This document shows, piece after piece, positions 4,361 through 42,838 of a stretch of DNA of 64,000 nt. The notes beneath the pieces were generated by a model. It did no database searches and was not told the origin of the DNA. It saw only the letters and a program-made list of their open reading frames with translations. The position numbers were made by a program, and so were the translations under genes. The DNA is from Kiritimatiellia bacterium (lineage in GTDB: Bacteria > Verrucomicrobiota > Kiritimatiellia > RFP12 > DVOR01). The stretch is from NCBI GenBank assembly GCA_017558005.1, contig JAFYWN010000007.1, forward strand, positions 74,364 to 138,363, written 5' to 3'. The first letter of the stretch is position 1. Every line of letters begins with the position of its first letter.

Positions 4361-4436
4361 TGGAGCCAGCGAAGGGACTCGAACCCCCGACCCACTGATT
4401 ACAAATCAGTAGCTCTACCAACTGAGCTACACTGGC
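4361..4436 (-). tRNA. tRNA-Thr (anticodon UGU) with encoded CCA
   Basis: The reverse complement GCCAGTGTAGCTCAGTTGGTAGAGCTACTGATTTGTAATCAGTGGGTCGGGGGTTCGAGTCCCTTCGCTGGCTCCA folds as a cloverleaf. It has a 7-bp acceptor stem, anticodon stem ACTGA/TCAGT with loop TTTGTAA (anticodon TGT), and a GTTCGAGTC T-loop. Confidence 0.9.
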
Positions 4437-21176: not shown

Positions 21177-21387
21177 ATATCAAAACACCATCGTTGCACA
21201 TTATACCACATTTACCCAGTCCCTATATTTATTAAAGTATAAAAAATGAAGACATAAAATTCACCTCAATCGTGTTAGATGACATCGCAAAAGAGTGCCC
21301 AAATTCAACCCTGTTTCGAAGGCACTTCCCCCCTCAGTTTTTCAAGCCAAACACCCCAACCAACACATACAACATCTCTCACAAAAT

Positions 21388-21908
21388 CTCTTCTCTCCAC
21401 ATACACTAAAAGTGTAGCAAAACGGAGACAAGTAGTCAACTCTACCGACCCAGGTAAGCGAAAATTTCGCGATAAGTAGGCGAAATTTCCGCTTGAAAAT
21501 CGGCGACTTTGCTCACCCAATTTCGCTAACTTTGCCCAGGAATTTCGCTGATATTGCTCGCCAATTTCGCTGATATTGACCCGAAATTTCTTTAGCTTTC
21601 CCCAAAAAAGCTGCTACTTGTTGATAACTTTTCTACCACGTTAGGTCCACTTTTTCGCAAGGAAGCGACTGTAGCGGAGTTGATTTCGCCACTTTTTTGA
21701 CTTATCTCTTTATTTTTCAAGGAGTTATACAGTTTTAGAGAAAGTGAGCAAAAGTGGCGAAAATGGGCCGATCCGCCGACAAATTTTCAAAAAACTGCGT
21801 CGTAAAATGTGAATTGTTGATAACTTGTTGATAACTCAAAAAAGTTTTCAACAGGCGAAAAATCGCTAAAAAAGTGCAAAAAGTGACACACCTGCGCAGG
21901 GGATTTTT
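21388..21908 (+). repeat. copy A of a ~520-bp dispersed non-coding element (iterons + TGTTGATAAC boxes)
   Basis: Colinear, same-orientation alignment with 42061-42579. It includes a shared 5' block CCACATACACTAAAAGTGTAGCAAA and a 53-bp identical core (21813-21865). Confidence 0.85.
21458..21603 (+). repeat. iteron array A (AATTTCGCT-type repeats, 22-bp phase)
   Basis: Direct copies start at 21519, 21541, 21563 and 21585. Inverted copies lie upstream: GCGAAAaTTTCGC at 21458-21470 and GCGAAATTTCC from 21480. Confidence 0.8.
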
Positions 21909-21935
21909 GAAGAAAAAAGAAAATAAAAAGCTGTC

Positions 21936-21984
21936 AAAAAAATAAGGTCACACGATGCTTTGAATAGAGATTCATCATGTGACC
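21936..21984 (-). terminator. rho-independent terminator downstream of the DUF1287 gene
   Basis: Minus strand: GGTCACATGATG-loop-CATCGTGTGACC (11-12 bp stem with one mismatch) followed by TTATTTTTTTT, 10 nt after the stop at 21994. Confidence 0.65.
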
Positions 21985-41321: not shown

Positions 41322-41793
41322 CGTCCGGAACTCGCTCCTGTTAGAAATGAAAACGCACCCGTAATAAAGAGACCATCTCCCTATTACAAAGCACAAATCA
41401 TAACATAATTAGCCCCCTAAAAACGAATAAAATCGCATCTCCATAAATAAAAATATAAATAAAAAATTACCCCGCCCTTTTTTCACCCATTTTTTCAACC
41501 CTAAAACACCCTCAAAACCCCGTTAAATAGGCACTTTTAACAAACTCCATCTTCCGCCCAAGAGTTACCTTTTATTTTTCAAAAAATTACACATGCTCAG
41601 GCCAACCGCAACCGATTCATTTAGAATCCCTCTATTTGAGCCCCTCGCGCTACAAATTTTCTCGTTAAGTAACTCCCCACCATCCCACACATGGACTATG
41701 CCCACGAGCGCACCACGCCCCCCAGAAGGAATTCTCACTCACCCCACACATGGCATATGCCAACAAGAGTAGATCGCTCACAAAAAAGAGACT

Positions 41794-41995
41794 TCCTTAT
41801 CCCATGCGCAGCATGTGTCAGTCGGAGTACCACACATCGCAGAAAGACACGTATTCCACCCACACACTACTTGTGTCAGCAAACACACCACACACCATAC
41901 ACCACAGAAGGAAACCACCCTCCACCCCACGCGCTGCTTGTCACCATGCACCCCTAGCCTCTCCTTATCCCATGCGCAGCATGTGTCAGTCGGAG
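41794..41995 (+). repeat. perfect 34-bp direct repeat pair in a G-depleted tract
   Basis: TCCTTATCCCATGCGCAGCATGTGTCAGTCGGAG occurs at 41794-41827 and 41962-41995. Confidence 0.85.
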
Positions 41996-42060
41996 CGCGT
42001 GCGCTCCGCCCGTTCATCGGCTTTAGCCGTGGAAAAGCTTTTCAAAAAAATAATCACAGC

Positions 42061-42579
42061 CTCTTCTCCCCACATACACTAAAAGTGTAGCAAAGTCTTT
42101 CACGATTGTCAAATCGTCATTTAAGGACCCTCTAAAATATCGCAAAAAAGGCTCAAAATTTACCCTTCAAAACTAGCGAAATTGCAACTCAATTTCGCTA
42201 GTTTTGCTCCCCCAATTTCGCCAGTATTGGGATCCAATTTCGCTAATATTGACCCAAATTTTCTAGAGACCTCCCCCAAAAACGGGCAAATTGTTGATAA
42301 CTTTTCCTCCCCTCATGACCCATTTTTTCGAAAGGAAGCCGCTGTAGCGGAGTTGATTAACCCAATTTTTTGCACTATCTCTTTTTCCCTAAAGAAGTTA
42401 TGCATTTTAAGCCACCGTTTGATTTTCGCCTTAAAAATCGCCACCACACCGAATTTTTTCAGAAAACTGCGTCGAAAAACTTGCATTGTTGATAACTTGT
42501 TGATAACTCAAAAAAGTTTTCAACAGGCGAAAAATCGTTAAAATTTTCGAAAAAATGAACTTTTCGCGCAGGCGATTTT
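42061..42579 (+). repeat. copy B of the ~520-bp dispersed non-coding element
   Basis: Colinear with 21388-21908. The identical 53-bp core lies at 42485-42537. Confidence 0.85.
42168..42277 (+). repeat. iteron array B, including a 17-bp perfect inverted repeat
   Basis: The inverted repeat is CAAAACTAGCGAAATTG-caact-CAATTTCGCTAGTTTTG (42168-42206). Direct AATTTCGC-type copies start at 42191, 42214, 42236 and 42257. Confidence 0.8.
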
Positions 42580-42743
42580 GGCGCAAAAAACAATTTAGCG
42601 ACAAACACTTTACAAGGAAAATTTCCCCACGGATTTTCACAAACCTGCAAGCCGATAGAGGAACAATCCTCACAGAAGAAGGTACCCCACGACATTAAAG
42701 AAACTGTAAGCGCATAGAGAAAAACAAGTCATTTCACACCCTC

Positions 42744-42838
42744 ACGAAGGCACGTAGCGCACGCAAATAACGTCCATCAATAGCCTACGAATTTCCTGCA
42801 GTTGCAGTCTTACGAAGGTATGTAGTGCACGCAAATAA
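42744..42838 (+). repeat. 27-nt direct repeat pair (24/27 identical)
   Basis: ACGAAGGCACGTAGCGCACGCAAATAA (42744-42770) versus ACGAAGGTATGTAGTGCACGCAAATAA (42812-42838). All three differences are C/T. Confidence 0.75.

Follow-up and report, generated by a model that had tools for sequence, protein, structure and literature searches.

A dispersed non-coding repeat family with phased iterons and predicted DnaA boxes in a Kiritimatiellia lineage

The window, a stretch of 64,000 nucleotides from an uncultured Kiritimatiellia bacterium of the gut (contig JAFYWN010000007.1, assembly GCA_017558005.1), contains two members of a ~535-bp non-coding repeat, at 21381-21914 (copy A) and 42055-42586 (copy B), which are direct repeats 20.7 kb apart. 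Alignment of 21330-21960 with 42000-42640 was colinear, with a mean column identity of 82% and conservation in blocks. The original prediction had described a paired element with six shared blocks at 21388-21908 and 42061-42579. All six blocks were recovered where and in the order in which they had been described, including a 53-bp block that matches exactly between 21813-21865 and 42485-42537. The position of the element was likewise upheld, while its limits have been replaced by those of the profile match, and its description as a pair was refuted by a family of at least 20 copies per genome. The left edge of the element is sharp, and a 25-nt left-end motif was found only in the two copies.

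In plus-strand order, the element begins with a pyrimidine run and a palindrome TACACTnnnAGTGTA lying over the -10 of a minus-strand promoter (P_out). Inverted iterons and three to five 22-bp-phased iterons come next, and then an A-rich run and one isolated TTATCAACA box. Four islands, a 53-bp core, and a right-end module that occurs in two versions complete it. The features of the two copies are as follows.

21381-21914, plus strand: copy A, entire element with a subtype I left part; matched by the profile over model positions 2-535 (score 574) and included in an alignment with 30 further full copies
21402-21416: copy A, palindrome TACACTAAAAGTGTA overlapping the -10 of P_out; arms invariant in the family, 3-nt centre variable
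21411-21439, minus strand: copy A, predicted P_out (promoter scan), TTGACT, 17-nt spacer ending in TGc, TACACT; points leftward out of the element
21458-21490: copy A, inverted iteron dyads GCGAAAATTTCGC (21458-21470) and GCGAAATTTCC (21480-21490), read from the sequence and the hexamer positions
21497-21606, plus strand: copy A, iteron array of five 22-bp units starting at 21497, 21519, 21541, 21563, and 21585; core AATTTCGC
21616-21633, minus strand: copy A, single DnaA box TTATCAACA (21619-21627) in the invariant island AaTTGTTGATAACTTTtC; the box of copy B is at 42292-42300
21653-21711, plus strand: copy A, three conserved islands, TTTCGCAAGGAAGC (21653-21666), CTGTAGCGGAGTTGATTT (21669-21686), and TATCTCTTT (21703-21711); counterparts in copy B at 42326-42384
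21791-21800, plus strand: copy A, conserved island AAAACTGCGT; copy B, 42463-42472
21813-21865: copy A, 53-bp core; tandem pair of TTATCAACA boxes, minus strand, at 21815-21823 and 21826-21834 (period 11 bp); A6 tract; imperfect box TTTTCAACA in inverted orientation, plus strand, at 21845-21853; GCGAAAAATCG
21879-21914, plus strand: copy A, right-end module with island AAAAGTGA, small palindrome CCTGCGCAGG (21891-21900), then GGATTTTTGAAG
42055-42586, plus strand: copy B, entire element with a subtype II left part; matched by the profile over model positions 3-535 (score 562)
42075-42089: copy B, the same palindrome as at 21402-21416
42084-42112, minus strand: copy B, predicted P_out, TTGACA, 17-nt spacer, TACACT, extended TG
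42168-42277, plus strand: copy B, iteron region; 17-bp perfect palindrome formed by an inverted iteron (42168-42184) and the first direct iteron (42190-42206), then two iterons with cores at 42214 and 42236 and one degenerate unit
42485-42537: copy B, 53-bp core identical to that of copy A; boxes at 42487-42495 (minus), 42498-42506 (minus), and 42517-42525 (plus)

A scan with the tandem-box 22-mer, which covered one genome per species, showed the MAG Candidatus Spyradenecus sp. JAZUPT01 to contain at least 21 loci, and these loci were identified as full-length elements by BLAST and by a profile built from three copies. Proteins flanking the JAZUPT loci were ~99% identical to those of window-matching contigs, indicating that the window is conspecific with the JAZUPT01 MAG. 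The genus of this MAG is placed by NCBI in the Lentisphaerota, and the closest named homologues of a neighbouring protein carry the label Kiritimatiellae. A metagenome scan with 40 nt of the core yielded 19 copies (20 stretches), every one from assembly JAEIGA01, and two of these, L101 and L104, are orthologous to copies A and B, with flanks 97-99% identical to the window. Pairwise identity across 31 full copies had a median of 73% and a maximum of 92%. The family is modular, with a left part in two versions, a right end in two versions, and linked variant blocks; copy B has the right-end version that copy A lacks. A coding function was considered and rejected: stop-free stretches are numerous, but variability is flat by codon position (0.19/0.15/0.19), in agreement with the earlier statement that no reading frame is shared.

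Each copy contains three to five TTTCGC iterons in 22-bp phase together with inverted copies. The core AATTTCGC starts at 21519, 21541, and 21563 in copy A, a spacing of exactly 22 bp, and at 42191, 42214, and 42236 in copy B, a spacing of 22-23 bp. The exact phase of the array thus stands as predicted, while the four units originally listed for copy A are joined by a fifth at 21497; the first and last units of this array are degenerate. Iteron number differs among copies by the gain or loss of whole units. On the opposite strand GCGAAA is found at 21458 and 21480, and family-wide the islands of the iteron region read CcCAATTTCGC, AATTTCGC, CAaTTTCGC, and TATTGACCC. TTTCGC/GCGAAA occurs 10 times in copy A and seven times in copy B, corresponding to 16/kb inside the elements versus 0.87/kb in the rest of the window. 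The enrichment reported for this hexamer is therefore real, with a chance expectation of ~0.5 per element and not the 0.2 initially given.

The palindrome in the iteron region of copy B has arms that are 100% complementary (repeat search), and the corresponding hairpin, as single-stranded DNA, has a predicted energy of about -18.1 kcal/mol (z = -11). Its arms covary among 18 subtype II copies, with 19 two-sided changes versus 6.9 +/- 2.0 in shuffled data and none of 500 shuffles as high. The hairpin is absent from copy A, a subtype I element (z = +0.7), and so cannot provide the core function of the family.

Conservation is concentrated in twelve islands representing 178 of 560 alignment columns. 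Over all copy pairs the islands were ~95% identical and the spacers ~63%, a preferential conservation of iterons and boxes that contradicts uniform neutral decay. Distances between islands are also retained. The single box (box 1) and the core triad are 196 bp apart in 24 of 31 copies; a range of 195-197 bp takes in 30 of the 31, and the remaining copy measures 185 bp. The palindrome lies 206-209 bp from box 1 in 29 of 31 copies (207 bp in 22), and the two outliers, at 186 and 229 bp, are close to one 22-bp iteron unit less and more. From the last iteron to the perfect box, 55 bp were counted in 21 of 31 copies, 77 bp in eight, and 54 bp in two. The rare indels are close to 11 or 22 bp, equal to one or two helical turns, and AAA tracts gave an 11.0-bp periodicity peak with a power of 1.19 versus a shuffle maximum of 0.07. 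Such an arrangement, in which conserved motifs keep their helical positions and the spacers are nearly free to vary, is, at the sequence level, the signature of a protein-binding DNA scaffold. The original prediction of such a scaffold, as opposed to a gene, is consistent with islands held at helical-phase-preserving distances between almost unconstrained spacers.

The predicted promoter at the left end is invariant: TTGAC-N15-TGnTACACT was exact in 32 of 32 loci with the left part and was found nowhere else in 123 loci. Promoters of related species have a similar extended -10, TGCTATACT. The nearest DnaA box is 207 bp from P_out, which is long for direct action and counts against control of this promoter by DnaA. 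Inspection of the right end by eye revealed no convincing right-facing promoter or sigma-54 site.

Each copy carries three perfect TTATCAACA boxes and one imperfect inverted box, arranged as a tandem pair at an 11-bp period, the inverted imperfect box, and one box alone 196 bp away. The two tandem boxes and the one opposed box are invariant across all copies, an invariance that is partly due to ascertainment for the 22 to 40 bases serving as search patterns; the island AaTTGTTGATAACTTTtC, though outside all search patterns, is 98% conserved in 31 copies. The tandem boxes also spell an IHF consensus, WATCAANNNNTTR, which overlaps the boxes. Even when one mismatch is tolerated, every TTGTTGATAAC match in the 64 kb lies in the elements, three in each copy, compared to 0.97 occurrences in shuffles, none of 100 of which reached six. 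All six perfect boxes of the window fall within the elements (0.38 expected), as do 125 of 126 perfect boxes in ~356 kb of lineage DNA, oriC excluded; DNA outside the elements holds one perfect box in ~336 kb, which is chance level. By these counts, the family carries essentially all of the strong predicted DnaA sites outside the origin.

In the same species, dnaA and dnaN were located by Pfam on contig JAZUPT010000043.1 of the JAZUPT01 MAG. They are flanked by 20 TTATCAACA boxes in three clusters, many in the form of the tandem 22-mer, and no canonical TTATCCACA box was found around dnaA/dnaN of JAZUPT01. This site, beside dnaA and dnaN, is the candidate true origin. Since TTATCAACA is the sole box type clustered at dnaA/dnaN of the same species, it is the predicted DnaA box type of this species, which substantiates the earlier guess that the boxes are DnaA sites. 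The tandem pair of the element is identical to pairs in oriC, and in Bdellovibrio-like bacteria, Bacteroidales, Lachnospiraceae, and others the tandem 22-mer directly adjoins TTATCCACA arrays. No other block of the element was detected in the species' oriC, the boxes being the only common part.

All copies are intergenic and mostly lie between divergent genes; according to crude ORF calls, the neighbouring gene reads away from the element on the left in ~15 of 22 loci and on the right in ~20 of 27. The genes on the left are mutually unrelated (aspartate-semialdehyde dehydrogenase, fumarase, an ArsC-like protein, an acyltransferase, and potA). No flanking gene is shared among more than 30 copies, neighbours with Pfam matches being housekeeping genes, and no rep, par, transposase, integrase, or recombinase gene was found beside any of them. 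The gene to the right of copy A has its own terminator before the element, which points to little read-through into the element, and inspection of the sequence showed that the gene next to copy A retains its own promoter-like site, TGGTATAAT. GC skew is uniformly negative in the window, and its cumulative curve declines monotonically through copies A and B with no inflection, which speaks against the active iteron-type origin that had been among the original proposals. Of 40 loci, not all of them independent, 29 have the plus strand of the element on the C-rich strand.

Comparison of conspecific strains suggested that copies exchange sequence. Copy A is 92% identical to its orthologue between flanks of 97-98%, and copy B 82% between flanks of 93-97%. 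The differences sit in sharply bounded internal segments, the islands being 96-99% identical, and the pattern looks like segment replacement between copies, for which no donor closer than 82-89% was present in the incomplete set of copies. In strain ERZ28019155, one contig follows copy A from its left flank through its left part as far as the core and then continues into a different right end and flank, and a second contig joins a different left part and flank to the right part and flank of copy A from the core onward. These two contigs, which as metagenome assemblies could be chimeric, indicate crossovers inside the invariant 53-bp core. The copies act as portable homology, both for spacer exchange between copies and for strain crossovers in the invariant core. 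Several contigs end within the element; the family breaks metagenome assemblies and marks points of strain rearrangement. In relatives with a CorA 77-97% identical, no element was found upstream of the same 26x-aa neighbour gene, where gene order also differs, so that the locus does not offer a clean empty site. The absence of the element at locus A in close relatives suggests that it is not an ancient chromosomal fixture.

The family is a dispersed non-coding DNA scaffold under geometry-preserving constraint, and it carries the DnaA boxes of its species. The best explanation, which we put forward tentatively and at slightly under even confidence, is a lineage-specific interspersed scaffold that would act in the form of double-stranded DNA, providing a platform on which proteins assemble; it would bind DnaA together with an iteron factor and would serve, in distributed form, in DnaA titration or regulation. 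DnaA would bind the boxes cooperatively, a second putative factor would occupy the iterons as monomers and the dyads as dimers, and bending of the DNA at the phased A-tracts could bring both protein groups together. Given that almost all perfect boxes outside oriC lie in these elements, with three in each of at least 20 copies, the most likely net effect would be to sequester DnaA, or to alter its state, during chromosome copying. The elements would then play, in dispersed form, the part of datA or DARS, or that of initiator titration, and P_out may link the neighbouring gene to the DnaA state. A stronger form of this proposal, which we regard as unlikely though worth stating, is that the family encodes the initiator-buffering system of the chromosome, with 20-40 or more evenly scattered modules whose duplication by the replication fork would time the next initiation. 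Each module would be fixed in three dimensions relative to a second protein that binds the iterons; the modules would titrate DnaA, or change the nucleotide state it is in, and would be spread and reshuffled by recombination.

The main rival is that the element is a selfish, non-autonomous relic of an iteron-replicon origin that lost its rep gene and was multiplied in trans or by recombination, its islands being kept because its own propagation needs them. Island conservation could indeed serve the spread of the element itself, a possibility that counts against a host role. Read from right to left, the order of parts matches a pSC101-type oriV, and homology stops ~25 bp past the promoter, where a rep gene would start; the multiple copies, sharp left edge, absence at locus A in close relatives, and whole-unit variation in iteron number point the same way. 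However, rep, transposase, and integrase genes are absent beside more than 30 copies with housekeeping neighbours, and no homologue was found among plasmids (72,556 searched), phages, or viral contigs. Neither an empty site nor near-identical recent copies were seen (closest paralogues at most 92% identical), the GC skew gives no sign of origin firing, and the ends lack transposon features. Comparison of the left end with the reverse-complemented right end gave a score of 12.0 against a shuffle mean of 11.7, with 53% of shuffles as high, and no direct repeats of the target-site type flanked the 25 copies inspected. Taken together, we consider a selfish origin improbable, if the most serious of the alternatives. 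The same end comparisons bear on the possibility, raised as a refuting outcome in the original prediction, that the family is a high-copy MITE. It is multi-copy as that reading expects, but terminal inverted repeats, target-site duplications, a parent transposon, and near-identical recent copies were all lacking, and this candidate was rejected.

Another candidate is a portable promoter or regulatory cassette, in which P_out would drive the left gene and the boxes and iterons would form an operator or enhancer array. The promoter is invariant and resembles those native to the lineage, and the left neighbour reads away from it in most loci, within intergenic regions that are mostly divergent; still, about a third of the left neighbours are wrongly oriented, the left genes are unrelated to each other, the neighbour of copy A keeps its own promoter-like site, and a promoter has no need of 450 bp of phased upstream sites, making this account doubtful. 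It is quite unlikely that the 53-bp core is a site-specific recombination site by which the family mediates programmed inversions or excisions. The geometry TGTTGATAACT-CAAAAA-AGTTTTCAACA can be read in the sequence as 11-bp inverted arms around a 6-bp spacer with a third direct arm, a layout reminiscent of FRT or dif; in addition, the two strain-specific junctions have their crossovers within the core, and copies A and B lie in direct orientation at a distance of 20.7 kb. Against this, the core is the longest stretch identical in all copies, where homologous recombination would cross in any case, origin arrays at dnaA/dnaN are built of the same boxes, no copy has a linked recombinase gene, and the junctions, derived from metagenome assemblies, could be chimeric. 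A family of structured non-coding RNA genes, also among the original proposals, has slightly less probability still. Length is conserved and one hairpin shows compensatory changes in subtype II copies, but that hairpin is missing in copy A, the sole conserved promoter points outward, and the spacers are nearly unconstrained. Searches of Rfam at the gathering threshold and at E <= 10 returned only tRNA-Thr and noise, so that a match to a known Rfam family, another refuting outcome named at the outset, did not materialise. RNAalifold on both strands and APC-corrected mutual information detected local linked blocks only, and no long-range covariation or second covarying stem in 31 sequences of 73% median identity. 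The least probable reading of all, and a very improbable one, is that the copies serve as additional chromosomal replication origins, whether active or conditional. They do combine DnaA boxes with iterons and phased A-tracts, yet the monotonic skew has no inflection at A or B, an obvious AT-rich unwinding element is absent, at least 20 copies are present, and no initiator gene is linked to any of them. Going by the skew, the copies are probably not replication origins, except perhaps rarely used or conditional ones.

What is understood of how non-coding chromosomal loci control DnaA comes almost entirely from E. coli and B. subtilis, which have small numbers of unique loci, and a DnaA-binding scaffold in this lineage may represent a new way of buffering or regulating the initiator. 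If this preferred reading were true, a repeat family monopolising the strong DnaA boxes would provide a natural test of initiator titration in a distant uncultured phylum, and would show platforms for host-factor binding spreading in the manner of repeats. The strict spacing of motifs, changed only in steps of 11 or 22 bp over near-random spacers, offers a clean case in which to study selection on DNA geometry as opposed to sequence.

A literature search on TTATCAACA and on DnaA boxes in repeat families found no description of such an element and no repeat family with such content, in accordance with the earlier remark that no element of this architecture had been described. The element resembles three known groups, and departs from DARS, iteron origins, and mosaic repeats in one defining feature each: uniqueness, a rep gene, and terminal palindromes or inverted repeats, respectively. 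The single-copy loci datA, DARS1, and DARS2 control DnaA in E. coli; a locus of this type is unique, lies at a set distance from oriC, and promotes DnaA-ATP hydrolysis or ADP release in an IHF/Fis-dependent manner. DARS2 is a few hundred bp long and contains binding sites of DNA-bending proteins, to which the IHF consensus in the tandem boxes and the phased A-tracts may be compared. Like these loci and the DnaA-box clusters of B. subtilis, the element is a non-coding chromosomal cluster of boxes in defined orientation outside oriC, with boxes of the oriC type. The DARS core contains three boxes, two in the same direction and one opposed, with the opposed boxes 5 bp apart (PMC6868365). The 53-bp core likewise has two same-direction boxes and one opposed, at a separation of 10 bp. 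The datA, DARS, and B. subtilis clusters are single-copy and not repeats of one another, whereas the element has at least 20 homologous dispersed copies in place of a unique locus at a set distance from oriC, and only the element has an iteron array and an outward promoter attached. The single-copy state of datA, DARS1, and DARS2 and the different separation of the opposed boxes in the DARS core count against the preferred reading.

In pSC101-type origins (oriV) the order of parts is DnaA boxes, A-rich tract, iterons, inverted half-iterons, and rep promoter. The iteron plasmid origins (pSC101, pPS10, F, R6K, and P1) share with the element direct repeats in 22-bp phase, inverted half-repeats by a promoter, DnaA box(es), A/T-rich bent DNA, and the linear order of parts. 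They differ in that a rep gene follows the promoter in no copy of the element, which is chromosomal and dispersed, has no match in the plasmid collection, and gives no skew sign of firing. A chromosomal oriC is likewise a poor fit, as the element is not beside dnaA/dnaN and the window contains no skew switch. MITEs are, like the element, short, non-coding, multi-copy, and restricted to one lineage, but have the terminal inverted repeats and target duplications that it lacks. With its many intergenic copies and alternative modules, the element belongs with the interspersed intergenic mosaic repeats, such as BIME/REP (IHF-binding RIB/RIP), ERIC, pneumococcal BOX, and Neisseria Correia, which similarly occur in tens of intergenic, modular, mosaic copies, contain host-factor sites and sometimes outward promoters, and serve as recombination substrates. 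Within this class the element is much longer (~535 bp), is without terminal palindromes or terminal inverted repeats, is enriched upstream and not downstream of genes, and differs in content, with a triad of DnaA boxes, one further box on its own, and phased iterons, all at fixed spacing.

Short repeats and repeat-like sequences lie around copy B of the element (window 42055-42586). The right end of the element is a module that occurs in two versions within the family, with one version in copy A and the other in copy B. The features around copy B are as follows, in window coordinates:

41794-41827 and 41962-41995: 34-nt exact repeat TCCTTATCCCATGCGCAGCATGTGTCAGTCGGAG, in the interval between potA and copy B
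42669-42838: 30-nt unit present in four copies around copy B, reference CTCACGAAGGCACGTAGCGCACGCAAATAA at 42741-42770
42618-42652: AAAATTTCCCCACGGATTTTCACAAACCTGCAAG, similar to the family's other version of the right-end module (AAATTTCCCCAAAAGTGACAAACCTGCGTAAG)

The 660-bp interval between potA and copy B was itself found to be repetitive (window 41690-42000). The 34-nt repeat includes a small hairpin (CATGC-GCA-GCATG), a second repeat in the same interval has a period of ~180 bp, and the orthologous strain carries one additional unit. On the right-hand side of copy B, three of the four copies of the 30-nt unit follow one another at a spacing of 68-72 bp, upstream of an oxaloacetate-decarboxylase-like gene. 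AAAATTTCCCCACGGATTTTCACAAACCTGCAAG may represent the remnant of a second right end next to copy B.

Two extra repeat modules were observed beyond the right end in most copies from the conspecific MAG (Candidatus Spyradenecus sp. JAZUPT01) and the metagenome JAEIGA01, including scan loci L029, L033, L022, L017, L094, and L102, among others. The first, (GGGATARA)n, is a variable purine microsatellite with an 8-nt unit; the second is conserved and GC-rich (GGGGGCGACGCCGCCCCC...GCATCCTGACGGATGCTTTTA), consisting of hairpins with a terminator-like end. Neither module adjoins copies A and B of the window. To the left of the element (loci L107, L098, L033, L089, L091, and L105), runs of GAACYC-type short repeats (e.g. 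CTGAACTCAGAACCCAGAACTCAGAAC) adjoin the left end in several copies. In a different subset, copy B of the window included, their place is taken by a hairpin block that is conserved (CCGnCCGTTCATCGGC...GCCGTGG).

The copy at L103 (7719-8259) yielded two overlapping profile matches, covering model positions 14-199 and 161-532, a pattern that points to an internal duplication of ~40 bp in the iteron region. Two metagenome copies, L091 and L107, have identical right flanks after the element but differ in their left parts and left flanks, which may be another case of co-existing strains having crossed over at the element.

GC skew was below zero in all 2-kb bins of window 1-64000 (mean about -0.11), regardless of gene orientation. 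Since it is negative in every bin, the entire window lies on a single replichore, and its plus strand is the C-rich one. Searches of the window with Rfam and ARAGORN returned no match other than one tRNA gene:

4361-4436, minus strand: tRNA-Thr (TGT)

The chromosomal origin of the species is probably represented by three clusters of TTATCAACA boxes, the DnaA box type of this species, which surround dnaN and dnaA (L043 6970-7280; L031 2130-2630 and 6810-7080). A HIRAN-domain gene is located between dnaN and dnaA, and the two genes adjoin an XRE-type regulator that carries a zinc ribbon. These clusters contain zero canonical TTATCCACA boxes.

The exact tandem-box 22-mer TTGTTGATAACTTGTTGATAAC was found within dense box arrays of many unrelated phyla. 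It alternates with TGTGCATAAC boxes in Poribacteria (L003, L018, L030, L034, L039, L042, and others), and in Bdellovibrio-like genomes (L007, L013, L019, L020, L055, and L081) TGTTGATAAC and TGTTAATAAC boxes form a run that is followed by three or four TTATCCACA boxes.
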